Shown: piece by piece, positions 7,540 to 30,219 of the stretch
Layout of the letters: each line of letters opens with the position of its first letter
Position numbering within the stretch: the stretch's first letter is position 1
Origin: a virus
Lineage: Duplodnaviria > Caudoviricetes
DNA length: 30,704 nt
Virus record (IMG/VR): IMGVR_UViG_3300032320_000087
Location: 1-30,704 of that record
Direction: 5' to 3' (one strand)
Program-made: the position numbers and the translations under genes
The notes under the pieces: generated by a model
What the model was told of the DNA's origin: nothing
Seen by the model: only the letters and a program-made list of their open reading frames with translations
The model's database searches: none

Positions 7540-10500
7540 ATGCCACGTTTATCTAAAATTGGTGCAGCAGCCCTAGCAGCCTTTGGTTGGACTTCTGGAG
7601 ACTCTGCCGTTTCTGCTAGTTATCTAGTTGTTGCTGGTGGTGGCGGTGCATCATGGGCTGGTGGCGGTGGTGCTGGAGGATATAGAACAGACTCAATATC
7701 GCTTAACCCAACACTTTCATATACGGTAACCGTTGGTGCTGGTGGCGCACAAGCAGTATCAGGCGTTGGAAATAATGGTTCTGATTCTGTGTTTAGTACC
7801 ATTACATCTTCTGGTGGTGGTTATGGAAGATACAATGTGTCGGCAGTTTCTGCTGGCTCTGGTGGCTCTGGAGGGGGCATTGGTGGTCAAGCTGGTACAC
7901 AAACGGCTGGTTCTGGTAATACTCCATCAACATCTCCATCTCAAGGTAATAACGGTGGTACAGGAAGCGGCTCTGGTGGTGGTGGCGGTGGTGGCGCAAG
8001 CGCTGTGGGTCAAAGTATTGCTAGCACAACAGGCGGTAATGGCGGTGCTGGTACAGCCTCTTCTATTACAGGAACTTCTGTAACCTATGCTGGCGGTGGA
8101 GGTGGAGGTGGGTCTGGAGCTGGTGGTACTGGCGGTGCTGGTGGCGGTGGCGCAGGCTCAACAACTGTAGGAACTGCTGGAACAGCTAACCTTGGCGGTG
8201 GCGGTGGCGGTGGATGGAATACTAACGGTGGTAACGGTGGCTCAGGCGTAGTGATTATCTCCTACCCAGCCCCACAGAAATTCGGTGGCGGCATCATTGT
8301 AACCGATGGTGGTTCAACTATCATTCACATATTTAATACATCAGGGGTTCTTTCTCCGCTGTCTTCATTGTCAGCAAACTATTTAGTTGTTGCAGGTGGT
8401 GCGGGTGGTGGTAACTCAGGTTCAACAAACCCAGCTGGAGGTGGCGGTGCTGGTGGGTTGTTAACTGGTTCTGGTGCAGTAATTGACACCAACTCAATAT
8501 ATTTAGTACAAGTTGGAGCAGGTGGAGCAGGTTCAACTGCATCAAACACCGCTGGAACAAATGGTGTAAATTCTTATTTTAGTGGCTACACAACAACTGC
8601 TATTGGCGGTGGTGGCGGCTCATCTGGTACTGGCGCTGCTGTCACTGGTGGCTCAGGTGGTGGCGGTAACTATGGTTCGCAAACTGGTGCTGGAGTAACT
8701 GTAGCAGGACAAGGTTTTGCTGGTGGTAATGCGTTTAATGGTGCAAATTACACTGCTGGTGGCGGTGGTGGCGCTGGAGCTGTTGGCGTTAATGGAACTT
8801 CGACAGCTGGCGGTAATGGTGGGGTAGGTATAGCTTCCTCTATTTCTGGCACAAGCACTTTTTATGCTGGTGGCGGTGGCGGTGCTGGACCAAGCAATTC
8901 AGGAAATACCGCAGGAGTAGGTGGCAATGGGGGTGGCGGTAATGGAGGAAGAGGAACAACTGTAAGTGCACCAACAAGTGGAACAGCTAATACTGGTGGT
9001 GGCGGTGGTGGCGGTGGATATGCTTTTGCACAAGACGGTGGAGCTGGTGGCTCAGGAATTATAATCATCTCCTACGCTGGCTCTACTCAGCTTATGGCTG
9101 GCGGTACAGTCACAATCTCTGGTGGCAATGTAATCCACACATTCACCTCAAGCGGATACTTAACACCATTGAAGTTGGTTAACAACTCATTGCGTTTCCG
9201 TTCAAGTGCTAGTGCTTATTTGAGCCGTACACCTGCAACCGCCTCCAATCGTAAAACTTGGACTTGGAGTGGTTGGGTTAAGCGTGGTTCTTCTGCCGCT
9301 AATGTTCTTTTTATGGGCGGTGCAACCCAAACAGATACAGGCGCAACTTGTATTACTTTTTATAACGACATACTTTATATTCAAGGTTACAACACAAATT
9401 GGCTTGTAACCACACAAGTATTTCGTGATTATTCTGCTTGGTATCACATAGTTGTGGCAATGGATTCTACAAATTCAACCGCAAATAACAGGCTAAGATT
9501 GTATGTAAATGGTGTAGAAGTCACATCGTTTTCTACAAGAAACAATTTAACTCAAAATACTGATTACGGAATTAACCAAGCCGCATTGCATACTATTGCA
9601 TATCAATCGGTAGCATTTGGAAATACATATTTTGATGGCGAGCAAACAGAAATTAACTTTGTTGACGGTCAGGCATTAACACCAAACAGCTTCGGTACAT
9701 TTAACAGCTACGGTGTATGGCAACCTATTACCTACGGTGGTAGCTACGGTACTAATGGTTTCTATTTGCCAATGAACCCTGGTAGCTCTACTTATGCCGC
9801 ACCTTTTAACGGAACAAGTCAATTAATTTCTGTTCCCGCAAATGCAGCGTTTAACTTTACTGGTAACTTTACAGCCGAGTGCTGGGCAAATACTTCAACC
9901 ATAACTAACGCAACTCAGCCTACTTTGTTTACTATTGGTTCAGATGGCGCTGGTTTAGTAGTTGGTTTTTATGCAGGTACATTTTATTGCTATATGTTAG
10001 GTAGCGGTGGCTTAATGTCAGCTGCAACATTGCCATTAAACCAATGGGTTCATGTGGCATGGGTAAGGGTTTCGGGTGTTAATACCCTTTATCTTAATGG
10101 TGTTGCTAGTGCCACTGCCTCAGTATCTGGAACATTATCCAGCACAGGCGGTGTGACCGTTGGTAGAACAGGAAGCTCAGGCTCAGCTTTCCAATATTTC
10201 CAAGGTTCAGTATCAAACTTTAGGGTAAATAACACTGCTCTTTACACAGCAAACTTTACTCCACCTACAAGCCCGTTAACTGCTGTTAGTGGAACTCAGT
10301 TATTAACCTTGCAAAACGCTACCATTATTGATAACTCAACTAATGCGTTCACTATTACCAATACAGGTTCTGTGGCAACTGTTGTAGCTTATCCGTTTAA
10401 TTTAAACAAAACAATAGATTACAGCCCAGCTGGTAACAACTGGACAAACAACAATATTGGCACAGTAACAGGCACAACCCTTGATGTAATGACCGATGTC

Positions 10501-11118
10501 CCAACGCTGACTAGCGCAACGGCTGCAAACTATCCAACATTGAACCCTTTGGCTTTACCTCCATCAGGCTACACAGCTGGTACATTTTTAAGCGGAAACT
10601 TACAATTTACTACTGGTGGTGTAAAGATAGCAAAATCAACTATGGCAATTCCTTTAACAGGAAAATGGTATATAGAGTGCAGAAGTAGCGGAACAAGTGC
10701 TTCTATTGATTGGATATTTGGGTTAACAGGCATGGCTACTACAACCCCTGTAAATCATTCAAATCCAGGCGTTAATTTGTATATATCTGATACTGCTTAT
10801 TGGTTATTAAATGCCGTAACACAATTTACCCAAGCTGGTGCTATATCGTCTAGTGATGTTTTCCAAATTGCTTATGATTCAAGCACAGGAAAAGTATGGT
10901 TAGGAAAAAATAATACTTACTACACAGCGGCTGGGGCTGGTACTGGTAATCCATCGTCAGGCACAAATGAATTTGGTACGATTTCTACTACAACAGAATA
11001 TTGTGCTTATACAGGTGGAAACTCAGGAACTACTACAAGTAGTATTAACTTTGGACAACAACCATTTGTCTACACACCGCCAACAAACTTTGTAGCCCTT
11101 AACACTTACAACCTATAA
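7540..11118 (+). CDS. Receptor-binding fibre: two glycine-rich domains, LamG/ConA-like, nested second LamG, SPRY-like
   Basis: Duplicated YLVVAGGGG..GGSGxxIISY units; SLRF..WTWSGWVKR..WYHIVVA..LYVNG LamG; GKWYIE..NFGQQPF SPRY-like. Confidence 0.8.
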   Translation: MPRLSKIGAAALAAFGWTSGDSAVSASYLVVAGGGGASWAGGGGAGGYRTDSISLNPTLSYTVTVGAGGAQAVSGVGNNGSDSVFSTITSSGGGYGRYNVSAVSAGSGGSGGGIGGQAGTQTAGSGNTPSTSPSQGNNGGTGSGSGGGGGGGASAVGQSIASTTGGNGGAGTASSITGTSVTYAGGGGGGGSGAGGTGGAGGGGAGSTTVGTAGTANLGGGGGGGWNTNGGNGGSGVVIISYPAPQKFGGGIIVTDGGSTIIHIFNTSGVLSPLSSLSANYLVVAGGAGGGNSGSTNPAGGGGAGGLLTGSGAVIDTNSIYLVQVGAGGAGSTASNTAGTNGVNSYFSGYTTTAIGGGGGSSGTGAAVTGGSGGGGNYGSQTGAGVTVAGQGFAGGNAFNGANYTAGGGGGAGAVGVNGTSTAGGNGGVGIASSISGTSTFYAGGGGGAGPSNSGNTAGVGGNGGGGNGGRGTTVSAPTSGTANTGGGGGGGGYAFAQDGGAGGSGIIIISYAGSTQLMAGGTVTISGGNVIHTFTSSGYLTPLKLVNNSLRFRSSASAYLSRTPATASNRKTWTWSGWVKRGSSAANVLFMGGATQTDTGATCITFYNDILYIQGYNTNWLVTTQVFRDYSAWYHIVVAMDSTNSTANNRLRLYVNGVEVTSFSTRNNLTQNTDYGINQAALHTIAYQSVAFGNTYFDGEQTEINFVDGQALTPNSFGTFNSYGVWQPITYGGSYGTNGFYLPMNPGSSTYAAPFNGTSQLISVPANAAFNFTGNFTAECWANTSTITNATQPTLFTIGSDGAGLVVGFYAGTFYCYMLGSGGLMSAATLPLNQWVHVAWVRVSGVNTLYLNGVASATASVSGTLSSTGGVTVGRTGSSGSAFQYFQGSVSNFRVNNTALYTANFTPPTSPLTAVSGTQLLTLQNATIIDNSTNAFTITNTGSVATVVAYPFNLNKTIDYSPAGNNWTNNNIGTVTGTTLDVMTDVPTLTSATAANYPTLNPLALPPSGYTAGTFLSGNLQFTTGGVKIAKSTMAIPLTGKWYIECRSSGTSASIDWIFGLTGMATTTPVNHSNPGVNLYISDTAYWLLNAVTQFTQAGAISSSDVFQIAYDSSTGKVWLGKNNTYYTAAGAGTGNPSSGTNEFGTISTTTEYCAYTGGNSGTTTSSINFGQQPFVYTPPTNFVALNTYNL

Positions 11119-11122
11119 GACT

Positions 11123-12169
11123 ATGCCTACACCAACAATCCCAGCTGGCAATTTGTTTATGAACGCTACCACTTATACTGGTACAGGAGCTTCTTTGACC
11201 GTTACCAATGGAGTAGCTGGGCAGTCATTTCAACCTGATTTTGTTTGGATTAAATCCAGAAGTGTGGCAGAAAACCATTTAGCTTATGACTCTGTCAGAG
11301 GTACAAACCAAAGACTTTACCCTAACTTAACAGCAGCAAATTCAACAGCAACAGACCAATTTAATTCATTTAATAGCAATGGATTTACGCTTGGCGCAGA
11401 CCCATCACAACAAGCCAACATAACTGGCGCAACAATGGTTGCTTGGAACTGGAAAGCAGGTGGCACAGCCGTCAGCAACACAGATGGAACAATAACTTCT
11501 TCAGTATCCGCAAACCAAACAAGTGGCTTTAGTGTTGTTACTTATACAGGTACAGGTAGTAATGCAAGTGTAGGGCATGGACTTTCTGTTCTTGGTGTTG
11601 CCCCACAATTTATTCTTACTAAAACTGTAAGTACAGCATTAGGTAACTGGGGCGTGTATCACGCATCATTAGGAGCTACAAAAGCCTTAAACTTAAATAA
11701 TACAATTGCTGCAGCAACATTTATTCAATTTTGGAATAATACTGCACCAACTTCAACTGTATTTTCAGTAGGAACATCTAATGATGTAAATGGCGCTTCA
11801 ACTTATGTAGCATACTGCTGGGCGCCTATTGCTGGCTACTCTGCATTTGGCTCGTACACAGGTAATGGTTCTGCTGATGGAACTTTTGTATATACAGGGT
11901 TTAGACCAAGATTTATAATGATAAAAAGGTCAAGCGGTGTAGGTGATTGGCTAATCCAAGATACATCAAGAAGCCCATATAATTTATCTGATTCTGTTTT
12001 GTACGCAAACTATTCTGATGCTGAAGGAACAGGCGGTGGATATGGAATTGATATTCTTTCCAATGGATTTAAATTTAGAAATTCAGCTACTTATGCCAAT
12101 GCAAGTGGTTCAACCTATATTTACGCTTGCTGGGCTGAGAATCCGTTTAAGTACAGCAATGCTCGATAA
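11123..12169 (+). CDS. Fibre-associated beta protein (YTG-repeat, DUF7483-like)
   Basis: YTGTG..FQPDFVWIKSR..AWNWKAG..GFSVVTYTG..GYSAFGSYTGNG..GFRPRFIMIK..DILSNGFK. Confidence 0.75.
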   Translation: MPTPTIPAGNLFMNATTYTGTGASLTVTNGVAGQSFQPDFVWIKSRSVAENHLAYDSVRGTNQRLYPNLTAANSTATDQFNSFNSNGFTLGADPSQQANITGATMVAWNWKAGGTAVSNTDGTITSSVSANQTSGFSVVTYTGTGSNASVGHGLSVLGVAPQFILTKTVSTALGNWGVYHASLGATKALNLNNTIAAATFIQFWNNTAPTSTVFSVGTSNDVNGASTYVAYCWAPIAGYSAFGSYTGNGSADGTFVYTGFRPRFIMIKRSSGVGDWLIQDTSRSPYNLSDSVLYANYSDAEGTGGGYGIDILSNGFKFRNSATYANASGSTYIYACWAENPFKYSNAR

Positions 12170-17228: not shown

Positions 17229-17618
17229 ATGTTTAATGTAGACCAAGAGCTACCTGCATCCCAAATCATTATGCAAGACCCCCATTCTCAAGAAGCTGGG
17301 GCAGAACAAGTTGTTATGGCTGTTAATAAACTTGTTGAAGAAGGCAAAGGTATTTTGGTGCGCCACAACAATTCAATTGTTTTACTTATACAAATTGGTG
17401 ATGGTGAAGTGGAAATTCATTTATTTACAGTAGACCCTCCACACCGTCTTGCATCAGCAATGAAATACTTCCACGACCAATTGGTACAGTCAGGAATTAC
17501 TAAGGTGTATGGCACAGAGATGCCTGATAAGCAGCTAGTTAAAATGATGTTGGCGGTGGGTATTCCCGTGGATAAGTCCGATAAACCCGATTATTACTGG
17601 ATGGGTATTGCACAATGA
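17229..17618 (+). CDS. Hypothetical protein, possibly GNAT-fold (positional analogue of T7 gp13 / P22 gp14)
   Basis: 129 aa alpha/beta protein (EIHLFT..SGITKVYG..MLAVG) between the tail and ejection genes. Confidence 0.6.
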   Translation: MFNVDQELPASQIIMQDPHSQEAGAEQVVMAVNKLVEEGKGILVRHNNSIVLLIQIGDGEVEIHLFTVDPPHRLASAMKYFHDQLVQSGITKVYGTEMPDKQLVKMMLAVGIPVDKSDKPDYYWMGIAQ

Positions 17619-19297
17619 GATACAAATTAGACTCCGAACTCCCTATTAATGCGTTCTCTCCTCGTGGAGGACGTAGTCCTTTTACTCGTGGGATGACACT
17701 TGAAGGACCTAGTGGGGGTGGGGGTGGGGTTCTTGCTCCTGTTACTAAAGCTTTTGGTAGCGTAGCTAAAGCCGCTACTGATGTAGTAAAAGGCGTTGTT
17801 CAGCCTGTTTATAACGCTACGTTAAAACAAATTCCAGGCGTTGATAATGCGTTAGTTAACTTAGACAAATCTGTAGGAAAAGCTATTCCTGGTGGTTGGG
17901 GGACAGTAGCTTCAGTTGCTGCATCGTTTATTCCTGGTGGTCAATTGGCTGCATTAAGCATGACTCCAACTCAACTTGCCACTGGTTTAGGTGCGCTAAG
18001 TGGCTCTGGTGTAATGCGTGGTAAACATGATTTTAATTTGCAAGGCGCTATTATGGGCGGTGCAATGGCTTATGGCGCTTCTGAATTAAGCCAAGCTTTC
18101 CAAAATGCTGGAAAAAGTATAGCTGAAGGTGCTACTGATGCTACTACTCAATCAATTGCGAATGCTGCCGATAAAACAATAACACCAGGTTCTGGTTACG
18201 TTCCAGAAGGCGGCATGACTCAATTAGCGGGCACTCCCGCACCTGCTCCAACTCCTCCAGTTGCCCCTCCTGGTGCAGGATATGATTATTCTGCTGGTTA
18301 TTCGCCTACTGGTTCTGATGCTGTTACTCAGGCTTATACACCTCCGCCAACCATGTTAGAGAGAGCTGGTACTGCAATTCAAAACATACCTTCCAATATT
18401 GAAAGCGGACTTACAAGTCTTGGTAAATCTGCTACAAATTTTGGTGAGTCTGTTGGAAAAGTGTTTGATCCAGCCACTTATAATGGTTTAGGTGGCAAGT
18501 TGGCTGATGTTGGTTCTGGCACATTAGACAATATGGGCAACTTTGCTTCTGGAGTAGGCAAAGTAATTGGTGGCTCTGCAAGCCTTCCATCTGGCACATT
18601 AATGGGTGCTGGCGTTCCTTTGGTGCTTGGTTACTCTGGTATGGCTGCTCTTGAAGAGCAACAAAAATATTTAGACCAGCAACTAGCCGCTGGCAACATT
18701 GCACAAGATCAATATGATGTTGAAAAAGCTAAAATTGAAGAACAAAGAGCTTTTGCACAAAAAACTGTAAATGAAAACCCACTTCAAGCAACTACAGACA
18801 TAAACACTATTAGTAACGACCCTTCCATTTACAATAAGGCTAGTACACCTATATACGCTAGTCGCTCTACAGGGGATACTTTGTATGATAAAGACCCTTC
18901 AGGCGGCACAAAACTTCTTTATGCTGTAGGCGGTTCAGTAGATGATGAGTACGGCATGGATGAAGCTAGAGGAATGATGTCTGGTAACCTGCAAAACGGT
19001 CTTTTTGGTGGCGGAATTGCTAGTCTTGCTGCTGGTGGTATGGCTCCAAGATTTTTATCTGGCGGTGGCGATGGTATGAGCGACTCTATTCCAGCAAATA
19101 TTGGCGGTAAACAAGAAGCACGTCTTGCTGATGGTGAGTTTGTAGTGCCAGCTGATGTAGTTTCTCATTTAGGAAACGGCTCTTCTAAAGCGGGTGCAAA
19201 ACAACTGTATTCAATGATGGATAAAGTGCGTAAAGCTCGTACTGGTCGTCAGTCTCAAGGTAAACAAATTAACCCACGCAAATATATGCCTGTGTAA
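17615..19297 (+). CDS. Ejection/internal virion protein with C-terminal GDGMSDSIPA domain
   Basis: Gly/Ala-rich amphipathic segments; C-terminal GDGMSDSIPA..ARLADGEFVVPADVV..GAKQLYSMM. Confidence 0.75.
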   Translation: MRYKLDSELPINAFSPRGGRSPFTRGMTLEGPSGGGGGVLAPVTKAFGSVAKAATDVVKGVVQPVYNATLKQIPGVDNALVNLDKSVGKAIPGGWGTVASVAASFIPGGQLAALSMTPTQLATGLGALSGSGVMRGKHDFNLQGAIMGGAMAYGASELSQAFQNAGKSIAEGATDATTQSIANAADKTITPGSGYVPEGGMTQLAGTPAPAPTPPVAPPGAGYDYSAGYSPTGSDAVTQAYTPPPTMLERAGTAIQNIPSNIESGLTSLGKSATNFGESVGKVFDPATYNGLGGKLADVGSGTLDNMGNFASGVGKVIGGSASLPSGTLMGAGVPLVLGYSGMAALEEQQKYLDQQLAAGNIAQDQYDVEKAKIEEQRAFAQKTVNENPLQATTDINTISNDPSIYNKASTPIYASRSTGDTLYDKDPSGGTKLLYAVGGSVDDEYGMDEARGMMSGNLQNGLFGGGIASLAAGGMAPRFLSGGGDGMSDSIPANIGGKQEARLADGEFVVPADVVSHLGNGSSKAGAKQLYSMMDKVRKARTGRQSQGKQINPRKYMPV

Positions 19298-19307
19298 AGG
19301 ATAAATC

Positions 19308-20207
19308 ATGCCAACCCAAACAAACGTATCGTCAGCCTTAACAGACGTCCCAACAATACTTCAACCTTACATTACTGGGGCTGGTGGAGTATTGCCTACA
19401 GCTCAAAAAATTACGGGTCAAACTTATGACCAACTGTATGGTGATCCATTAAAGGCTGCTGGTTTAGCTGGCGCTGGTCGTGTTGCTTCTTTATCTCCAA
19501 TGCAAACTCAAGTTGGTGCTGACTTATCAGCAATGAAACTGCCAGGTCAATATGGTGCTGGTACAGCAGCGGTTACTTCTGGTATTGGCACTTTACAAGG
19601 TTTAAACGACCCTACACAAACTGCTGCTTTTATGTCTCCATACGTTCAAAACGTAATAGATGTTAATAAAGCAGAAGCAACTCGTGATGCACAAAAAGGC
19701 TTGCTGTCTAATAATTTAGCAGCTGGCAAGCAAGGCACTTATGGTGGCGCTCGTCAGTTATTGGCTCAAACTGAAATGGATCGCAATCTTCAAACTAAAT
19801 TAGGTAGCATTCAATCTACAGGTATGCAAAATGCATATGATGCCGCACAAAAAGCTCAGTTAGCTCAAGCTCAAGGATATGGCGCATTAGGTTCTACTAT
19901 GGGAGCATTAGGTACAGCACAACAAGCTGGTCAAATGGATATTACAAAAGCGCAGGGTGCTTATGGTGACTTACAGCGCAACGTACAACAAAACCAATTA
20001 GATGCTCAGTACAACGATTTAATGGCTAAGTTAAACCAACCATTAACTAACGTTGAAACAATGAGCAACTTGGCTCGTGGTGTTCCATTGGCTCAAACAG
20101 GAATGGCATCCACTACCACCACTCCTCCGCCAAGTTTTGCTAGTCAGTTAGCTGGTATGGGGTTAACGGGGCTATCTCTTTACAATATGTTTGGATCTAA
20201 ATCATGA
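19308..20207 (+). CDS. Ejection (DNA pilot/transfer) protein
   Basis: Gln/Ala/Gly-rich; MSPYVQNVID, GTYGGARQ; hydrophobic C-terminus QLAGMGLTGLSLY; AAGGA RBS. Confidence 0.7.
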   Translation: MPTQTNVSSALTDVPTILQPYITGAGGVLPTAQKITGQTYDQLYGDPLKAAGLAGAGRVASLSPMQTQVGADLSAMKLPGQYGAGTAAVTSGIGTLQGLNDPTQTAAFMSPYVQNVIDVNKAEATRDAQKGLLSNNLAAGKQGTYGGARQLLAQTEMDRNLQTKLGSIQSTGMQNAYDAAQKAQLAQAQGYGALGSTMGALGTAQQAGQMDITKAQGAYGDLQRNVQQNQLDAQYNDLMAKLNQPLTNVETMSNLARGVPLAQTGMASTTTTPPPSFASQLAGMGLTGLSLYNMFGSKS

Positions 20208-22138
20208 GCATATTAAGCGCCCTTAAACAGCAAAACAGTTCAATTGATTCGTTGGCTGCTTTACCGCAAGCCATGATTATGCAAATGGCTCAACGAAAAG
20301 AAATTAGCGAGGCTATGGTAGCTCCAATTCTTGCTCGTAAGGCAGAGTTAGCTGATGCTTTTGCAAGACAAAATATGTTAGCAAATGCTAGCAAAGCTCA
20401 ACCTACCGTAATGGAACAGTTGTTGGCAAAAAATGCTCAAGCAGAGCAGCCACAAATGCCAGAGCAAATGCCACAACAAGTTATGCCACAGGAAGCTGCT
20501 CCGTCAATTAATCCACAAGCTATGCCGCAAGGTGCAGAAGATGTAGGTATTGCTACTCAAGCTACGCAACCCATGTCAATGGCTGGTGGTGGAATTGTTG
20601 CTTTCTCTAAGGGCGACTTTATCGATGAAGATGATGACGAAGATGCTAGAGAAGAGGCTGACTACGCAACAATGATGAATGCTGCGCTTAGCGGAGCAAG
20701 AAATATTCCGCATAAAATATCTGAATTAGCTAGTCGCTTACCAAAATCTTATGCAGACACAAAAGCTCAAGTTTCGCATGAAAAAGCTCAAAAAATGGGC
20801 GGTCATAAGTACGAAGACTTGGTTCTTGCTGAAGCAAAGCGACAAGGTGTTGACCCAAAACTAGCGCTTCATGTTCTTTACAAAGAAACTGGCGGTCATA
20901 AAGACCCAGCAAATGCTAAATCTCATGCTGGCGCTTTAGGTCCAATGCAAATTATGCCTAGAACAGCTAAAGATTTAGGTATTGATCCATCAGATCCAGT
21001 TCAAAATATTCATGGCGGAGTTAAGTATTTAGCTCAACTTGGTTCTATGTTTGACAATAACCCACGCTTAACTGCTGCGGCTTACAACGCAGGTCCTGGC
21101 AACGTGCGTAAACATGGTGGAGTTCCTAACTTTAAAGAAACTCAAAACTATGTTGTAGGCTTAGCTCATGGTGGTGAAGTTCAACATTATGCAAGCAAAG
21201 GTTATGTAGAAGACGATGAACCTACTTCTGCTTTTGAAAGATTTTTTAATCAAACAGATGCATTAAAGGATTACGAAAACAAACTAGCTAAACAAAGAGA
21301 TTTTGAGCGAGTAACTCGTGAACAACCAGGATTGTTTGATAAAACCACTAAAACACAACGTGATAAAGCAGCTGCTGATTTAGCGGCAGCCAATCAAGCT
21401 CGTGTTGGTATTAAAACGCCCGCCAAAGTAATTCCGCCAACAATACCAGATGAACTTAAAAATCTGCCTATAGCCAGCGCACCTCAAGAAGTACGTGATA
21501 ACTCTGTCAAAGTAATGCCTTTACCGCAGGGTCAAGCACAAGCACCAGTAATGCCAAAATCTGGTCTTGAAAACTTTATGGAACAAATGGTTGCTCAAAA
21601 ATCAGAACTTGCAAAACAACGAGCTGAAGACAAAAATATGGCTTTGCTTACTGCTGGTTTAGGTATGTTGGGCGGTACGTCTCAGTATGCTTTTGAAAAT
21701 ATTGGTAAAGGTGCTTTAGCTGGTGTCCAAAACCTTGGCGAAGCTAGAAAATCACGAGCTGCAGAGCAAAACGCTATAGACAGAAATATGTTGTATGCAC
21801 ACCGTTATCAAGGTGTTGAGGATGTTGCTAGACAAAATGCTGCAGCACAACAAGCCTATAGAGGTGAGACATTACGAGAAACAGCACGAGCCAACACTAA
21901 TAAAGAGCTTGAACACGCACAAGCTAACCTTAACAATTATCTTAAAATGCAAATGGATCTTTACAAGAACCGTTTCCCAGTTGAGGGAATGCCTGGTGCT
22001 ACCGAAGCAATGGCTGAAATTTACAAGCGCCCAGAGTATGTAGCATTAGCAAAACGGGCGGGTTATACTACTAATCAACCAAGCACTACGTTTACACCAA
22101 AACAAGAGTCTTTATTAAGCAAATACTTACCTAGATAA
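20204..22138 (+). CDS. Ejection protein with SLT lytic transglycosylase domain
   Basis: ET (catalytic Glu at about 20885)..AKSHAGALGPMQIMPRTA..NIHGGVKYL..AAYNAGPGNV..ETQNYV. Confidence 0.85.
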   Translation: MSILSALKQQNSSIDSLAALPQAMIMQMAQRKEISEAMVAPILARKAELADAFARQNMLANASKAQPTVMEQLLAKNAQAEQPQMPEQMPQQVMPQEAAPSINPQAMPQGAEDVGIATQATQPMSMAGGGIVAFSKGDFIDEDDDEDAREEADYATMMNAALSGARNIPHKISELASRLPKSYADTKAQVSHEKAQKMGGHKYEDLVLAEAKRQGVDPKLALHVLYKETGGHKDPANAKSHAGALGPMQIMPRTAKDLGIDPSDPVQNIHGGVKYLAQLGSMFDNNPRLTAAAYNAGPGNVRKHGGVPNFKETQNYVVGLAHGGEVQHYASKGYVEDDEPTSAFERFFNQTDALKDYENKLAKQRDFERVTREQPGLFDKTTKTQRDKAAADLAAANQARVGIKTPAKVIPPTIPDELKNLPIASAPQEVRDNSVKVMPLPQGQAQAPVMPKSGLENFMEQMVAQKSELAKQRAEDKNMALLTAGLGMLGGTSQYAFENIGKGALAGVQNLGEARKSRAAEQNAIDRNMLYAHRYQGVEDVARQNAAAQQAYRGETLRETARANTNKELEHAQANLNNYLKMQMDLYKNRFPVEGMPGATEAMAEIYKRPEYVALAKRAGYTTNQPSTTFTPKQESLLSKYLPR

Positions 22139-22140
22139 AT

Positions 22141-25100
22141 ATGGCAGAACTAGATGATCTTTTTCTAGCTTTAGAAAGAGCGGATGCCGCTGGGAACAAG
22201 GAAGACGCTCGTGAGTTAGCCAAGATGATCTCTATGGTTTCTGGTGGGGTTTCTGCACCCCCAGAGCCATCTGTTAAACAAAACACCAGTCGTTTAGGTG
22301 ATATTGCTACAGAGTTTAAACAAGCTGCTGTAGGTGCTGGTAAATCATTTGCTGACGTATTTGGCGCAGAAAATGCGGCATCTCAATATCTTGGCGGTGT
22401 CCAAGAAAAAATGGGCAAAGAACTTAGACCGCAACGCATTGAACAAATGCAAAATCGGCAACGCATCATAGATGAAGCAATTAAGTCTGGCAGTACTCTT
22501 GAAGAAATTAAAGCTTATTTAGGTGGGGTTACAGAAGCTATTCCAGAGTCTATAGCTCAGGGGGTAGGCTCTCTTGTGCCTTATGTAGGAACTGGTATGT
22601 TAGGTGCTGGAGCTAGGGCGGCTGGATTAGCCTCTAAAGTAATTCCTAGCGCTAGAGCAATCAATACAACTTTAGGTGCGGCACAAGGTACTGGTGCAAT
22701 AAAAGGTTCTATTTACGATACCGTTAAATCTGAGCTTGAAGCTAAAGGCGAAAGCCCAGAAGTGGCGGCTGAAAAAGCTTCTCAAGCCCAAGCATACTCA
22801 TTGGCTAATGTTCCTCAGCTTGGTTTAGGTGCGGTTTTAGGTGCTGCGGCTGGCAGATACGGTGCAGAGAACTTAGTAACACCTGGCATTATTAATCGTT
22901 TAAACGCTAAGATGATTCCTAGGGCGGTAACCGCTGCGGCAGCTGAAGCTCCATTTGAAGGACTTCAGGGGGGTCAAGAACAATATGCAACTAACCTAGC
23001 TTTGGCTAGAGAAGGTTTTGACGTAGATCCTATGCAAGGTGTTCTTGGATCTGCCGCTAGAGATGCCGCTATAGGCGCTATTACAGCCGCCCCTATAGGA
23101 GCTATTAGCCGAGGTGAAAAAGCGCCTCCTAAGCCCGTTTTAGAGCCTACAAAGGCACAAGAAGCTGAGGAAAAGGAGAAGCAATCCGATCCTAATATTT
23201 ACAATCCAGCAGTCAGGGAAAGTGCCCCTCAAATTGCGGCAGCGCTACTCCCCGAAATGAAGCGTTTTGGCTTGGAAAATGTAGGTCTAAAGGTCATGGA
23301 TTCTATCGAAAATGGTAGAGCCGATGGTATGTGGGCTAATAACCTAATCCACGTAGCCTTAGACAAGCCTAATCCTATGGGTTCTATGCGCCATGAGTCT
23401 ATCCATGCGTTAAAACAGTTAGGCGGGTTCCAAGATAATGAATGGTCAGCCTTAAACAACAAGGCTAAGGGCGAGTGGCTTAAGACCTTTATTAAAGATA
23501 CTGGTAAATACGAGCAATATAAGAAGATTTATCAACAAGATAACAAGACTTTGGCTGGCTTTGAGGACTATATCCACGAAGAAGCGATTGCCGAAGCGTT
23601 TAGATACTTTGACAAGAATGGCGCTCCAGAGGGCATGATTGGTGCTATCTATGAGAAGCTTAAGCTAATGTTTGAAGCTATGCGTAATGGCTTTACTGGT
23701 GCTGGATTCCAAAGTGCAGACAGTATCTTTAGAAGTATTGAATCAGGCACAAGAGAGCAAGTAGCCCCAGCGGGTGAAGTACTTAATCCCGCCAGATTCT
23801 CTAAGCCTGATACCCGCAGATTAGATATGAACTTCAAGCAAGTTGCTGAACGTATTCCAGAGCTGCAAGAAGCTATGGCTAAGATGGATGCTGGCAAGAT
23901 GACTGGCGCTCAGTACGACAAACTAGTAAACAGATACAAACCTATTATTCCTTATGATTTTGTGCCCACTCCCGCTACTAAGGCGGAAGCCGTGGATGCC
24001 ATTGAAGATAAAGAAACCTATGGTATACCAGCCAAGAAACTCAAAGAAGGTCATCCAGTTGGTTTAAGACTTGATATTCCAGCCTATACCCGCAAAGGTG
24101 TATGGGTTCCAACAATCCATGAACAAGCCTCTGGCTTTGGTGCTGGTAAAAAGATTGGGCATGAAAGCGTTGCAGAGTTAACTGATGCCACATTTGGTAT
24201 GTCTGAGAAAGCTGCAGCAAGTATTGCTGGCGGTAAACCAAAGGGAACTATTGCCACAATTAAAGGCAATTGGAAGAAATCAAACGAGAAGACAGCTGTT
24301 GCAAAAGCACAAGCTGCTTTAAACGACCCAGCATGGACGCAAGTAGGTATGGATCCAGAGCGTCATAGCTATTTCTATGACCGCAAGACAACCCAACCAA
24401 TTCTGTCTGCTGATGAAGTCATTCAGATTGGTCCGCTCGTGCTGGCTAAAAACGCTAAGTTTGGTTCTAAGAAAGACTTTAAGTACTCCTTAGATAATGC
24501 CACCAAGGTTGAGCAAGTTCAATTCTTAGACCAAGAGATACAAGACTTGGTTAAAAACGTTGGCAAGCGTATTGTTGGCATGAAGTCTGATGAAACTTTA
24601 GAAGACGTTAAAAAGGCTGTTGCTAAATTACAACAGTACACTGCTGAAGGTATTAAAGGTAAAGATTGGTACGAAAAATCAGCCGCAGCAGTGCTGAGTG
24701 CGTTTAATGGCGACCCTATCCTTGCAGAGAAGTTTTTCCAAATTATTGCTATTACCTCAGCCAACACAGAGGTTGGAGCTAACTTTACCAAGGCGGTAAA
24801 CGGCTGGACTCAATTTGCTGAAGGCAGACCAATCAAAGTTGGCACTGAAAACGAGAACAAGAAGGTAGATGCTCTTCTTAACTTTGGTGAAGATTGGGGC
24901 GGTAGAAAGACTAATACTTTCTATTCCAACTTAATGGAAGCTATGGAAGGCAAAGATACTGGGCGGTCAACTATTGACTTGCATATGACCCGTATGATCT
25001 TTGGTAAAGATACCCCTACTGATGCTCAATACGAATTAGCTGAAAACATGGTTCGTTTGCTTGCTACTAAAGCGGGCATGGTTCCAAGACAGGTACAAGC

Positions 25101-28100
25101 CGCATCTTGGGTTACTCAAAAAGCCAAGTCTATGTTTGACTTGTATCGTCAAAAAGGCTGGAAAAAGAACCTTTCTGATACCGAGTTAAGAGAATTAACT
25201 TTTGAAAAAGCAGTTGGTGATTATTCCCACCAAATGAAAGCCAAGACTAAAGCGTTGCCTATTACAGAGGCTCTAAAAGAACCATCTCCTAGCATCAAGG
25301 CTCGCACCCAAAACATTACTGGAGAGATCATCCCATCCGTACAAACCCCTATGGGTCAAGCGGAAGAGATGGCTTTCAAGTTTAAAGAAAAGATTACCAA
25401 GCAGATTGCTAACTCTGATGCCATTCCTAAGCTGATTGATGCTCTTGGCATTAATAGTAAGGTTAAAGTTACCGTTGGTTCTGGAGCATATGCCTCTAAG
25501 GTTAACCCTAACTTAATTGTTAAGGTCATTAGCGACAACCCAGAAGAAGCCCAACGAGATGCGTTAGATCTGGCTAACGCCATGTCTTATGTGTTTAAAC
25601 AGGATGCCACGCCTTTGTACCGTGCTGATCCTAAGTTGCTAGGACAAAATCAGCTTGGTCACAAGATTAAGTTTGATACCGCAGACATCACACCAACTCA
25701 GCAGAAGAAGATGTTGGCAATTCTGCAAAAGCGTTTAGGCGAAGATGCTGGATTTACTAAGATCAACAATACTGAGTTAGTTACAATTAACTATCGTGGT
25801 GAAGACGGCAATCCGTTCCTCACTACAGACGAAGATTTTATGAAAGGTCTTGCTGAGATTCAAGATGAACTTAGCAAGGTTTCACCAATAGAGTCCCAAG
25901 AGATGTTTGGGGCGCAATCGGAGTATCCGTACCATGACTGGAAAACAGAACCTAGTGGAGCTGGGATTATCACTCGGCTTCAAGATAGCAGACGAGACAG
26001 ACCCAATCTACGACAACAGCTTGACAATCTCGGTGAATCCTTCGTCTCTGATCTCAGAAACACCGTCAGAGAATCAGGAGCAACCCCAAGATTTAGCATA
26101 ACCGCACCCGATACCAAAGAGTTTAAACAGTGGTTTGGCAACAGCAAAGTTGTTAACTCCGATGGCAGCCCTAAAGTCTATTACCACGGCACCGCCCAAG
26201 ACATTACAGAGTTCAAGCCTAAACAGGCTAATGCAATATTCTTAACAGACAATCCAAAATTTGCTAAAGATTTTTCACAATTAAGCAAACATTACATGGA
26301 GCAAGATGCGTTTAATTCTGCCTCACAAGAGGAGAAGATAGCGCAATTACAGTCCGTCAGAAAGCTTTTGGAGGAAGATGGTAGAGATACTGACTCAATA
26401 GCAAAAGACATTAGAAAACTAAAGAAAGGCGAAAAACTACCTAGCGACTTTTATATAGCTGGCGGTTATTCCGATTTATTAGACTACGTAAACCGTGATA
26501 ATGCGGGAGCGGAAAACATTCTTCCTGTATTTGTAAAGGCAAACAATCCTTTTGACTATCAAAATATTAAAGATATTGAAAAAGTTTTAAAGGTTGCTAC
26601 CCCAGAGGAAATGCAACCTATTTTGCAAAGGGCTTCTTATAACCCAGACAGATTAAAAAGAATTATTGGCGAGGGATCTTGGAACACTATTGAGTCCCCA
26701 CAGTTTCAATCAGCAGTTAGACGTGCTGGATTTGATGGATTTTATGTAAGCGAAGGCGGTAACAAAAACCTTGCGGTCTATGATTCAAGCCAAATTAAGT
26801 CGTTTACTAACCAAGCGCCTACAGAATCTAAAGACATTCGTTTCTCTGTTGCCTTAAATAGCATTGCGCCAGACACTTTCCTTACATCTGATAAGAACCC
26901 TAATGCTCTAGGTAACCTAGGGTTTATGCCAGTTAACTCGCCATTCCCTAAACGTCCTATCCGCCTTCAGATTGGAACTAGGGGCAACGAAAAGGGCAAA
27001 GCCTACGGTGCTAAACACATCCTAGAACGTGCTTTAACAGATGTGGCGCACAGACCAGTAGCGGTTACTAAAGAAGCCCTAGAAGACACTATTCTTCATA
27101 TTGAGAGCTTGTCTAAACGCTTTAATCGTGTTTACGCAGATGGCAAGCAATTCATTCTGTATGACGCACAGACCGATGATGCAATGGTTGTAACACCAAT
27201 GAACGGTTTCTACGGTGTCACTACTATGTACAGTAATCCAAACGTACAACGTAGATACGGCAACCCTAAGTGGAGTGGCAGAAACATCCAACCACCAGTA
27301 GAAGAGACAGGATTAAAGGCTAAAGGCATTTCTGTACGTGCTACAGAAGAGGGCGACATTGTCCAGTCCGAAGTACCTAAAGCGTTTAAACAGGCTAAAG
27401 TAACTACGCCAAATCAGATTGATGAGCAAGCTCAAAACTTGCCACGTAAAACTGGTACATTAGGTGTTAAGAAGAAGTTGTCTGTAGCAACTAACGCTCC
27501 TCCACAAGGCACGTTTACAACCCTTGTTGAAAACAAAACTGCTGGTAAACGTTTAACCGATGCTATTACTGGTGTTATAGACTTGTTTAAAGACCCAGAA
27601 AAACGCATGGAAGCCCGCATAGCGTTTATTGACCCTAACTCAGCGTTAGCAAAACGGTTAGAAAATCAACCAGTTTATGATAAAAATGGTGTACTTCGTG
27701 CCGATTTGCTGGCTAGAGGCAAAGCTACCACCATCAACATCATTCGTAACGGTCTGCAAACGGGAATTCCCATCAAAAACTCTGATGGATCTGTCATCAT
27801 TGAAAGAGATGACGTAAACAACCTAGCCAACAGCCAGGCGTTAGCAGATCGTTTAAACGATAACCAATACGTAATTGACTCAAAAATCAAGGGTGGTGGT
27901 AGAGGATTTGTAGCTGAAGTGGCTCGTGCCCTCCGTGCTAAAGAAATTATAGAAGAGGATGCTGCCTTTAACAAAACAGAACCTAACCGCAAGAAACATA
28001 AAAACAGAGAAAAGCAAATCAAGATTGAACAAATCAAATGGGCGGAGCAACAACTTAAAAACGTCCCTGAGCTACAAGCAATCTTTGACATTTGGAAAAA

Positions 28101-30219
28101 CGTTAATACTGGGCTGATTAACTTGTGGGAAGACGTGGGATTGTTTAGCAAAGAACAAGCTGACAATTACCGTTCTAAGCAACACTACGTGTCTTTAGCG
28201 GCTTCGTATGCCGACCTAGAAGTGATGATGGCAAACCAGTTAGGCTTTACCGCATCAGGCTTAAAGTCCACAGGCAAAGTGCATGAGCTTAAGGGTGCTG
28301 AGTATTTGCGGGACAAGAATGGAGTCATTCAGACTGATGAAAATGGCAAGCCAATTTTGTTAGAACGCAACCTTTGGGAAAACATTGATAAACAATATGC
28401 TTCTATGTTAGCGGCTGCTTACCAAAATCAAGTACGTAAGATTGCGGTTCAACAGTTGATGGGTCATGAAGCCGCCACAATTCCAACCAGAATGAAAAAT
28501 GGTAAAGAAGTTGGAGCGCCATTAACAAAAGGTATTAACTTAAAGTACAAGGATTATGGAAATCCATTGGCTGATAAAGATGGTGTAGTTCATGCTATTG
28601 TTACTAACCCTATAGATCTAGCCGCATTTGAAACGTTCCATTATGAGTTAACCCCTTTAATGAAGTTCTTTGGTGGGGCTACTAACGTCCTCCGTGCGGG
28701 TGCCTTGCTCAACCCAATGTTTTGGATTCGTCAGCTTATCCGTGACCCAATCCATGCAACTTTGGTGGCTAATAGCGGTATCGTAACCCCATTCCACTCC
28801 GCCAAAGAGTTTATCAGCATTCTTACTAAGAACTCTCCTGAAGCCCGCATTTTGGCTGAACGTGGAGTCATTGGACAGTACGATAGCACCCTAGACTTGC
28901 ATTCTTATCTTGAGGGGGCTGGTAAAGAACAATTACCAAAAGGTAATATTAATAAGTTGTTCCATAAGTTGATGCAGTACCACGAAGCATCTGATGCCGC
29001 AACCCGTGTAGCTATCTTTAAGAAAGAAAAAGAAGCTGCCATGAAAAAGGGCATGAACGAAGAGCAAGCAACTAACCTTGCAGTTATGAAAGCTCGTGAG
29101 TCCATTAACTTTATGATTCACGGAAACTCAGAGACTTTAAATTCTCTGCGTCAGATGATTCCGTTTCTTTCTGCGTCCATTACTTCTTTAGATACCGTAT
29201 ACCGTGCAGCTACAGGTTACGGATTGTCTGGTGAAGAGAAGGCTGCTGCTAAGAAGCTGTTTAAACAACGTGCAGGTTTAATGCTCGGCAGCAGCATTGC
29301 CTACGCTATGTTGATGCAAGACGATGATGAGTACAAAAAGTTGCCTGATTATGTCAAAGATAATAACTGGCTAATTAAGAACCCAACAGGCGAAGGCTTT
29401 TTGAAAGTAGCCGTGCCGTATGAGGTTGGATTCCTGTTTAAGACATTGCCAGAGGTGGCTATACGTGGTTTGTATGGCAATTCAACAGGCAAAGAGATGC
29501 TCAAGTCTTACAAAGACGGATTCTTGCATAACTTGCCTACTGGTGGAGTTCCTATACCACAAGGCGTTAAACCACTTTTAGAAACGGTTGCTAACTACTC
29601 ATTCTTTACTGGCAATCCAATTGAGAGCATTGGCGAAAGCAGACTGCCAATTGAAATGCGTGGCAGAAACGCAAGTGAAACCGCCAAGTTCTTAAGTCAG
29701 TCTGGTTTGGGTGCAATAGGTCTGTCCCCCGCCAAAATTGATAACCTGATGCAAGGCTACCTTGCAGAGGCTGGTACATTCTCATTCTTTTTAGCCGATC
29801 AGCTTGTCACTACAGTACAAGGCAAAGAACCTACCTCTAAGAACTTGGCTAAACAACCATTCTTCAAGTCATTCCTAACTGATCCAAACTCTAATAAAGC
29901 CGTTGCCGACTTCTATCAAATAGAGCAGACCGCCAACCAAGTAGCACAAGAGTTCAGCACAATGACTAAAACTGGCTTAGGCAAAGAAGCAGTAGAGCTA
30001 ATGCAAGATGAAGACAAGCGCAAGCTAATGGCATCTGCTCCCGCTTTACGCAGAGTGGCTACATCCATGACTGCTATCCGCAAGGCAATTGAAGCCACTA
30101 ATAACAATCAAAATATCCCGCCTGATGATCGCAGAGAAATGGTTAACAAGTTGACATCTCAATACAATCGGGTGGCAGAGCAAGGTGTCAAGTTAGCAAA
30201 TACCCTAGGTATTCGATAA
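22141..30219 (+). CDS. Giant polyvalent ejection protein: membrane region, zincin, several effector modules, LPD38-like C-terminus
   Basis: 2692 aa; HESIH at 23392-23406 with EEAIAE; WFGNSKVV..YYHGT..QIKS ART-PolyVal-like; YGAKHI PBECR-like; LPDYVKDNNW..PYEVG..NYSFFTGNPI LPD38-like. Confidence 0.85.
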   Translation: MAELDDLFLALERADAAGNKEDARELAKMISMVSGGVSAPPEPSVKQNTSRLGDIATEFKQAAVGAGKSFADVFGAENAASQYLGGVQEKMGKELRPQRIEQMQNRQRIIDEAIKSGSTLEEIKAYLGGVTEAIPESIAQGVGSLVPYVGTGMLGAGARAAGLASKVIPSARAINTTLGAAQGTGAIKGSIYDTVKSELEAKGESPEVAAEKASQAQAYSLANVPQLGLGAVLGAAAGRYGAENLVTPGIINRLNAKMIPRAVTAAAAEAPFEGLQGGQEQYATNLALAREGFDVDPMQGVLGSAARDAAIGAITAAPIGAISRGEKAPPKPVLEPTKAQEAEEKEKQSDPNIYNPAVRESAPQIAAALLPEMKRFGLENVGLKVMDSIENGRADGMWANNLIHVALDKPNPMGSMRHESIHALKQLGGFQDNEWSALNNKAKGEWLKTFIKDTGKYEQYKKIYQQDNKTLAGFEDYIHEEAIAEAFRYFDKNGAPEGMIGAIYEKLKLMFEAMRNGFTGAGFQSADSIFRSIESGTREQVAPAGEVLNPARFSKPDTRRLDMNFKQVAERIPELQEAMAKMDAGKMTGAQYDKLVNRYKPIIPYDFVPTPATKAEAVDAIEDKETYGIPAKKLKEGHPVGLRLDIPAYTRKGVWVPTIHEQASGFGAGKKIGHESVAELTDATFGMSEKAAASIAGGKPKGTIATIKGNWKKSNEKTAVAKAQAALNDPAWTQVGMDPERHSYFYDRKTTQPILSADEVIQIGPLVLAKNAKFGSKKDFKYSLDNATKVEQVQFLDQEIQDLVKNVGKRIVGMKSDETLEDVKKAVAKLQQYTAEGIKGKDWYEKSAAAVLSAFNGDPILAEKFFQIIAITSANTEVGANFTKAVNGWTQFAEGRPIKVGTENENKKVDALLNFGEDWGGRKTNTFYSNLMEAMEGKDTGRSTIDLHMTRMIFGKDTPTDAQYELAENMVRLLATKAGMVPRQVQAASWVTQKAKSMFDLYRQKGWKKNLSDTELRELTFEKAVGDYSHQMKAKTKALPITEALKEPSPSIKARTQNITGEIIPSVQTPMGQAEEMAFKFKEKITKQIANSDAIPKLIDALGINSKVKVTVGSGAYASKVNPNLIVKVISDNPEEAQRDALDLANAMSYVFKQDATPLYRADPKLLGQNQLGHKIKFDTADITPTQQKKMLAILQKRLGEDAGFTKINNTELVTINYRGEDGNPFLTTDEDFMKGLAEIQDELSKVSPIESQEMFGAQSEYPYHDWKTEPSGAGIITRLQDSRRDRPNLRQQLDNLGESFVSDLRNTVRESGATPRFSITAPDTKEFKQWFGNSKVVNSDGSPKVYYHGTAQDITEFKPKQANAIFLTDNPKFAKDFSQLSKHYMEQDAFNSASQEEKIAQLQSVRKLLEEDGRDTDSIAKDIRKLKKGEKLPSDFYIAGGYSDLLDYVNRDNAGAENILPVFVKANNPFDYQNIKDIEKVLKVATPEEMQPILQRASYNPDRLKRIIGEGSWNTIESPQFQSAVRRAGFDGFYVSEGGNKNLAVYDSSQIKSFTNQAPTESKDIRFSVALNSIAPDTFLTSDKNPNALGNLGFMPVNSPFPKRPIRLQIGTRGNEKGKAYGAKHILERALTDVAHRPVAVTKEALEDTILHIESLSKRFNRVYADGKQFILYDAQTDDAMVVTPMNGFYGVTTMYSNPNVQRRYGNPKWSGRNIQPPVEETGLKAKGISVRATEEGDIVQSEVPKAFKQAKVTTPNQIDEQAQNLPRKTGTLGVKKKLSVATNAPPQGTFTTLVENKTAGKRLTDAITGVIDLFKDPEKRMEARIAFIDPNSALAKRLENQPVYDKNGVLRADLLARGKATTINIIRNGLQTGIPIKNSDGSVIIERDDVNNLANSQALADRLNDNQYVIDSKIKGGGRGFVAEVARALRAKEIIEEDAAFNKTEPNRKKHKNREKQIKIEQIKWAEQQLKNVPELQAIFDIWKNVNTGLINLWEDVGLFSKEQADNYRSKQHYVSLAASYADLEVMMANQLGFTASGLKSTGKVHELKGAEYLRDKNGVIQTDENGKPILLERNLWENIDKQYASMLAAAYQNQVRKIAVQQLMGHEAATIPTRMKNGKEVGAPLTKGINLKYKDYGNPLADKDGVVHAIVTNPIDLAAFETFHYELTPLMKFFGGATNVLRAGALLNPMFWIRQLIRDPIHATLVANSGIVTPFHSAKEFISILTKNSPEARILAERGVIGQYDSTLDLHSYLEGAGKEQLPKGNINKLFHKLMQYHEASDAATRVAIFKKEKEAAMKKGMNEEQATNLAVMKARESINFMIHGNSETLNSLRQMIPFLSASITSLDTVYRAATGYGLSGEEKAAAKKLFKQRAGLMLGSSIAYAMLMQDDDEYKKLPDYVKDNNWLIKNPTGEGFLKVAVPYEVGFLFKTLPEVAIRGLYGNSTGKEMLKSYKDGFLHNLPTGGVPIPQGVKPLLETVANYSFFTGNPIESIGESRLPIEMRGRNASETAKFLSQSGLGAIGLSPAKIDNLMQGYLAEAGTFSFFLADQLVTTVQGKEPTSKNLAKQPFFKSFLTDPNSNKAVADFYQIEQTANQVAQEFSTMTKTGLGKEAVELMQDEDKRKLMASAPALRRVATSMTAIRKAIEATNNNQNIPPDDRREMVNKLTSQYNRVAEQGVKLANTLGIR

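Follow-up and report, generated by a model that had tools for sequence, protein, structure and literature searches.

RNA-virus polyproteins consist of one chain with one embedded protease and a repeated site between the units. For polyvalent proteins, processing into units by a zincin domain was proposed by Iyer 2017 (PMC5512222), and the phage-type members described there are large proteins of the virion module in which an HExxH+Glu domain is combined with ART-PolyVal, PBECR-like and LPD38 domains in mosaic cassettes. The accessible text of that paper specifies neither a site of cleavage nor a motif at junctions ('linker' and 'boundar' each have 0 occurrences), the accessible portions of PMC9503650 and PMC12810830 contain nothing on junction motifs, and no published description of the short tag reported here was found in the literature searched, in which subscription papers are thinly covered. 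Here we analyse a protein of 2,692 amino acids (aa) encoded on a 30,704-nucleotide stretch of Caudoviricetes DNA (positions 1 to 30,704 of IMG/VR record IMGVR_UViG_3300032320_000087; hereafter the window). It shares with the phage-type proteins of PMC5512222 all of the features just listed and differs from them, as far as they are described in that text, in that a specific, lineage-tuned tag can be mapped at the points where its cassettes are swapped. The polyvalent family and the self-processing hypothesis are already known; the lineage-tuned tag at swap points is the new part. Unlike the RNA-virus polyproteins, this is a virion protein of a dsDNA phage, its cargo is exchangeable and its cutting is only proposed. 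Polymorphic toxin systems likewise have effector domains exchanged by recombination (accessible text of PMC5512222), but theirs occupy one C-terminal tip, whereas here several internal cassettes occur in variable order and no orphans are found nearby (of the 377 small open reading frames, ORFs, of 37 loci, 0 resemble a cassette).

The gene (22141..30219, + strand, as for all window features given below) encodes an HExxH+Glu domain, a predicted zincin-like metallopeptidase, at aa 360-542 (23218..23766), with HESIH at aa 418 (23392-23406) and EEAIAE at aa 480 (23578-23595). Five tags follow: RFS at aa 552-554 (tag 1, 23794..23802, with K next), KYS at aa 781-783 (tag 2, 24481..24489), RFS at aa 1317-1319 (tag 3, 26089..26097), RFS at aa 1567-1569 (tag 4, 26839..26847) and KLS at aa 1779-1781 (tag 5, 27475..27483). 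The original prediction, which took these tripeptides for module boundaries, had all of its coordinates right, and our motif scan agrees with it that the [RK][FY]S sites at aa 552, 781, 1317 and 1567 are the only four in the protein; the KLS at aa 1779 is the sole [RK]LS. The modules between tags, here called cassettes A to D, do have the predicted lengths of 226, 533, 247 and 209 aa, and recognisable domains do sit within them, namely an L5 gp82-like match (below cut-off), DUF7178, ART-PolyVal and a PBECR-like lead. Counted within the single protein, the excess of the motif is marginal: four [RK][FY]S sites compare with 1.24 expected, and at least four are present in 701 of 20,000 shuffled sequences (P 0.035). 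For the five [RK][FYL]S sites P is 0.137, and for the four [RK][FYL]S[LIVF] sites, a pattern picked post hoc, it is 0.0026; the latter pattern is absent from the other ORFs of the window (0 vs 1.0 expected). A single sequence being insufficient, we regard the tags as module boundaries because relatives show swaps at them.

Homologues of the conserved C-terminal region numbered 498 at E<=1e-10, of which 120 were taken together with 90 viral loci. Swap points were defined independently of the motif, as positions at which one alignment gives way to another, and 104 proteins gave 63 distinct junction types. As many as 38 of the 63 lie no more than 12 aa from [RK][FYL]S, compared with 8.9% for random positions, and 47 lie within the same distance of the relaxed pattern (11.6% random). 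The raw count, with 245 of 570 swap points at most 10 aa from a tag, recounts the same events across relatives and the count by type is preferred. Alignments of relatives to the window protein begin or end near aa 784-790, 1317, 1567-1579 and 1778. Close relatives carry various different cassettes downstream of the KYS of tag 2 and have extra cassettes inserted after the KLS of tag 5, and in one clade the cassette order is reversed, with D ahead of C. Across the tag, similarity flips from the upstream family to the downstream family (184 and 248 pairs). At tag 3, for example, homology segments begin at the tag and its codons move with the upstream cassette, and the tripeptide codons travel in the same way in the junctions displayed. 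The first three tag residues are the C-terminal tail of each cassette and the hydrophobic residue, present after the tag in 85/91 ART C-junctions, is the start of the next. The plug-and-play cassettes foreseen in the original prediction, with swaps at the motif, are therefore borne out by the homologue alignments. Its alternative wording, a recombination-tolerant linker, survives in part: crossovers are indeed survived at the tag, but there is no conserved DNA sequence, so that the description holds solely as tolerance of crossovers. No integron-like conserved DNA recombination site was found at cassette ends, the 12-mers of the five window tags being all different.

A profile of the HExxH domain retrieved 3,032 representatives at E<=0.001, of which the best 150 were analysed. 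The tag consensus in this lineage is [RK]-[YFL]-S-[LIVF]-[RK]. Among these 150, [RK][FY]S[LIVFRK] occurs at 282 sites vs 65.8 expected, and versions with A, Q, E, K or M at the third position are not enriched. In the long members of this set (at least 2,000 aa, with at least 1,100 aa after the HExxH domain), the cassette region contains 2.42 tags per 1,000 aa, compared with 0.07 for the N-terminal region, 0.05 for the HExxH domain and 0.34 for the final 850 aa, so that tags are 7 to 48 times denser there than elsewhere. Spacing is domain-sized, only 10 of 204 gaps being shorter than 100 aa (30% random), and of the 118 proteins in which the HExxH domain is followed by 1,000 aa or more, 85 have at least two tags. 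The HExxH domain is itself flanked by a tag, upstream in 17/144 proteins and downstream in 81/144; in 36 close relatives the site of tag 1 reads RFS in 30, RYA in 3 and KFS in 1, and is absent in 2. In two AlphaFold models, each of the five window tags falls inside or at the margin of a stretch with a predicted local distance difference test score (pLDDT) below 50, tag 1 being in a linker of this kind. When domain boundaries were mapped against motif positions, as had been suggested with the original prediction, the tags fell outside the confidently folded cores. As in a self-processing polyprotein, a protein-level motif is thus repeated at unit boundaries in accessible linkers.

The 150 distinct tag sites comprise 119 different 12-mers and use all six Ser and Arg codons, the tag Ser being encoded by TCN in 113 cases and AGY in 37. 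Since 12-mers and codons vary so freely, the tag is conserved at the level of protein, not of DNA. This matters for an explanation that we hold to be improbable, in which the tag is a functionless by-product of shuffling, the tail of the much-duplicated ART-PolyVal cassette, spread by seeding illegitimate recombination. The tag is indeed the usual C-terminal tail of ART cassettes, crossovers do fall within it, and tag sites of the same gene share a codon more often than expected (41% vs 29%, 523 comparisons), so that room for duplication remains. Set against this are the free choice of codons, with both Ser codon sets in use, the presence of the tag at the end of unrelated cassettes also, and the concerted change of tag version through whole proteins in several lineages. 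Furthermore, where the HExxH is of another type or missing, the ART tail lacks the tag, and the 377 neighbouring small ORFs include no orphan cassettes.

As judged by sequence correlation, it is with the HExxH lineage, not with the C-terminal anchor, that the version of the tag changes. Among the best 79 of 557 ART-cassette loci, other HExxH types included, the same ART cassette in other HExxH lineages is flanked by their own tag or by none. In many of them, for instance loci L100, L106, L162, L166 and L167, a lineage-own tag is present at both ends of the ART cassette, and such tags recur at domain spacing, with 7 in L149, 5 in L166 and 6 in L105. When one protein was taken per HExxH cluster (14 clusters, tandem ARTs left out), the N- and C-junctions of the ART cassette were more alike within than between proteins (179 vs a null mean of 148, P 0.008). 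A single anchor clade contains several HExxH types and has [RK][FY]x tags in the window-like types only (quick tree, 53 rows). The tag is also enriched in 15 proteins without a detectable C-terminal anchor, some of them perhaps truncated (28 vs 5.2). On the HExxH tree, Q versions appear at three distinct positions, and the 16 Q, A, K and E variant proteins inspected contain no [RK][FY]S-type site in the scanned region. A concordance figure of 10 non-S pairs vs 2.2 was set aside as biased by hand-added proteins. A locus with neither component is L148 (1077-5128), where two tandem mid-sized proteins, ART + InPase and ART + zeta-toxin-like ATPase, have no HExxH and no tag.

Cultured phages provide further instances. 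In F116 gp60, which contains two HExxH motifs, the ART cassette is preceded and followed by an FSR tag. The DC33 and MinM2 giants are without the window-type tag; in the former, a cultured freshwater phage (Limnohabitans phage DC33 gp45, L170 7045-16422), HExxH is accompanied by several F-x-Q motifs at domain-like spacing, one of which precedes the ART cassette, and DC33 may have its own, F-x-Q, version of the tag. Close relatives of the window protein were not found in culture, the 50,697 phage records yielding 1 weak match to the HExxH domain.

Some further observations concern the HExxH domains. P0121, P0161, P0233, P0241 and P0245 have two to four HExxH domains of the window type and few tags or none. 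A recurring HEGRH cassette, separate from the main HExxH domain, is seen in L044, L070, L124, L126 and others. A break within the HExxH domain divides the giant gene of L031 (3432-12583) between two frames, while the near-identical L034 and L035 are whole; the break is possibly an assembly error.

What the tag does is a separate question. We consider it rather probable, in line with the original prediction, that it is a 'cut here' signal, which would be read and cut by the protein's own predicted HExxH domain, so freeing the cargo. Indirect support for this comes from the correlation of tag version with HExxH lineage. The H, E, H and EE of the domain are invariant in 20/20 aligned relatives. 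Gene position, together with the finding of distant relatives in virions, suggests that the polyvalent protein is likely to be carried in the virion and to enter the cell along with the DNA; packaging or injection is reported or proposed for such relatives in the accessible portions of PMC4819975, PMC9144972, PMC12002296 and 10.64898/2026.04.10.717836. The HExxH+Glu domain would then bind the tag in its extended linker and cut there. Thermolysin-type enzymes prefer to cut before a hydrophobic residue, and since such a residue so regularly follows the tag in ART C-junctions, the cut would probably fall between it and the Ser. New N-termini would be predicted near K555, L784, I1320, V1570 and V1782, with the release of four cargo units, and cutting would be timed after injection. 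Only swaps that rebuild a tag would survive, for which reason crossovers would be expected at the tag.

Several results weigh against cutting by the HExxH domain. Its AlphaFold model is helical, with moderate pLDDT, where the three-stranded zincin sheet would be expected. No zincin is among the matches of a VIA fold search with aa 345-1330, a PDB sequence search with the HExxH profile returned helical look-alikes only and no zincin, and Pfam gives single weak rows (Tox-MPTase2 E 0.039, M13 E 0.06); Foldseek, run with both models, gives no match at E<=0.001. HExxH is intact in cassette-less relatives, no catalytically dead relative was found that could act as a control, and 18 of the 118 proteins with a long region after the domain are without any tag. 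At tags 2, 4 and 5, shallow alignments are part of the reason for the low pLDDT. The match between tag and lineage has weaknesses also: variant labels and lineage-own tag patterns were picked by eye, five of the 14 clusters (L047, L109, L134, L146 and L163) show no likeness of N- and C-junctions, unbiased concordance of the third residue within the window's HExxH lineage is modest (83/120 pairs vs 77.2, P 0.013), and many proteins have a mixture of S, A, N and Q at that position. No column of the HExxH domain was found to track the Q variant, so that no specificity residue emerges. Finally, N4 vRNAP, which has HExxH, is packaged unprocessed according to the accessible text of PMC5512222 and, in that of PMC13434306, was solved with its RNA polymerase and C-terminal domain together.

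The wholeness of N4 vRNAP in the virion would also be in keeping with the tag serving as a docking handle for the HExxH domain or for a part of the ejection apparatus, which would order, unfold or thread the cassettes while the chain remained whole. Such a handle would account equally well for the conservation at the protein level, for the location in linkers and for the change of tag with HExxH lineage; we nevertheless regard it as fairly unlikely. Neither the catalytic Glu nor the metal ligands vary in the 20/20 aligned domains, and both can be seen in the representatives checked, and the tag flanks the HExxH domain as well as the cargo. In addition, ART-like cargo can be packaged with no tag at all, as in cyanophage A-4L. 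The A4 gp27 pre-ejectosome subunit (PDB 9k3a, accessible text of PMC12002296) has an ART-like domain at 1418-1599 that is the best structural match to cassette C (9k3a_B, Z 7.3, 138 residues, rmsd 3.9), yet A-4L gp27 (L172 20116-25269, - strand), unlike the window protein, has no HExxH and no tag. The same ART-like domain bears a YHGT motif, and 'ribosyl' is absent from the main text of PMC12002296.

If the tag is indeed cut, the protease might be another one, from phage head maturation or from the host, leaving the HExxH domain to target host proteins or peptidoglycan. Such targets are named as alternatives by Iyer 2017 and by the phi24B and phi14:2 preprints (10.1101/2020.03.07.982082 among them), in the portions accessible, and the head genes are located outside the window. 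This possibility is nonetheless an unlikely one: the other window ORFs are without the tag, the 20 sites vs 11.3 expected in 169 neighbour ORFs are mostly repeats of two conserved unrelated sites, and inside one anchor clade the tag tracks the HExxH type.

In genomic position, the window protein resembles the T7 IVP-D (gp16)-like ejection proteins, F116 gp60 and phi24B gp47 included, which are also encoded by the last and largest ejection gene. In these, cargo is fused to a conserved helical core according to the accessible text of PMC4819975 and 10.64898/2026.04.10.717836, which describes no tag or processing; the likeness here is one of gene position and cargo. The + strand of the window forms a phage virion module, in which tail, holin and endolysin genes and three ejection-type genes precede the 2,692-aa ORF. 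The three (17615..22138) encode proteins of 560, 299 and 644 aa, with an SLT domain in the last, and a PHROG 'DNA ejection protein' match precedes the giant ORF. Within the ejection (internal virion) block the latter is the largest gene and comes last, after the lytic transglycosylase gene.

The N-terminal region of the protein (aa 1-359, 22141..23217) has no family matches and no [RK][FYL]S sites. Cassette A (aa 555-780, 23803..24480) gives a weak match to the mycobacteriophage L5 gp82 family (PF25735 E 2.7e-5, 24.5 bits, cut-off 27) and to phrog_586, with no match in the ESM Atlas. Cassette B (aa 784-1316, 24490..26088) contains DUF7178 (PF23802 E 5e-11, aa 835-994, above the Pfam cut-off) and a part predicted by model and fold search to be ferredoxin-like alpha/beta; it was not found free-standing, its 7 matches being all partial and on contigs of 1.1-3.5 kb. 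Cassette C (aa 1320-1566, 26098..26838) has the ART-PolyVal ADP-ribosyltransferase fold (PF18760 E 1.8e-19), and its model matches ART folds. Cassette D (aa 1570-1778, 26848..27474) has no Pfam match and is likely a PBECR-like (barnase/RelE fold) nuclease, for which the ESM Atlas score of 0.90 to PF18809 clusters is a lead only. The conserved C-terminal region (aa 1782-2692, 27484..30216) includes LPD38 at aa 2395-2566 (PF18857 E 4.4e-30), which joins DUF7178 and ART-PolyVal as the matches above the Pfam cut-off. From its sequence, therefore, the giant protein belongs with the phage-type polyvalent proteins as the accessible text of PMC5512222 describes them: at least two unrelated effector domains are present in one large polypeptide, the gene is located in a virion/ejection module and the domain architecture is mosaic among orthologues.

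Other features were noted in the neighbouring genes. The products of 17615-19297 and 20204-22138 contain repeated [YLM]A-x-GG-type motifs near domain edges, and these repeats may be a second processing signal. The 560-aa protein starting at 17615 opens with a tag-like RYKL, and an L068 ORF at 1652 with a similar start opens with RYSL. Two consecutive ORFs at 7540-12169 of the window, encoding a Gly-rich/LamG protein and a DUF7483 protein, both match phrog_19943 (1,227 positions).

Whether the arrangement extends to phage polyvalent ejection proteins in general, as a protease-and-tag code with a separate short tag for each HExxH lineage to read, seems to us evenly balanced. Under such a code, the tag would close every cassette and often the protease too, recombination at the tag would build new multi-effector payloads, and once in the host these would come apart in a matter of minutes. 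Such a code would be a DNA-phage counterpart of viral polyprotein processing, and HExxH lineages could possibly supply a set of small, orthogonal, sequence-specific proteases. The tag gives the 2017 proposal of unpacking by zincins predictions at the level of residues, for which F116 gp60 is a cultured test case, and it allows uncharacterised cassettes to be parsed into natural units for anti-defence screens. Even without cutting, the tag accounts for the positions of domain exchange in these giant genes.

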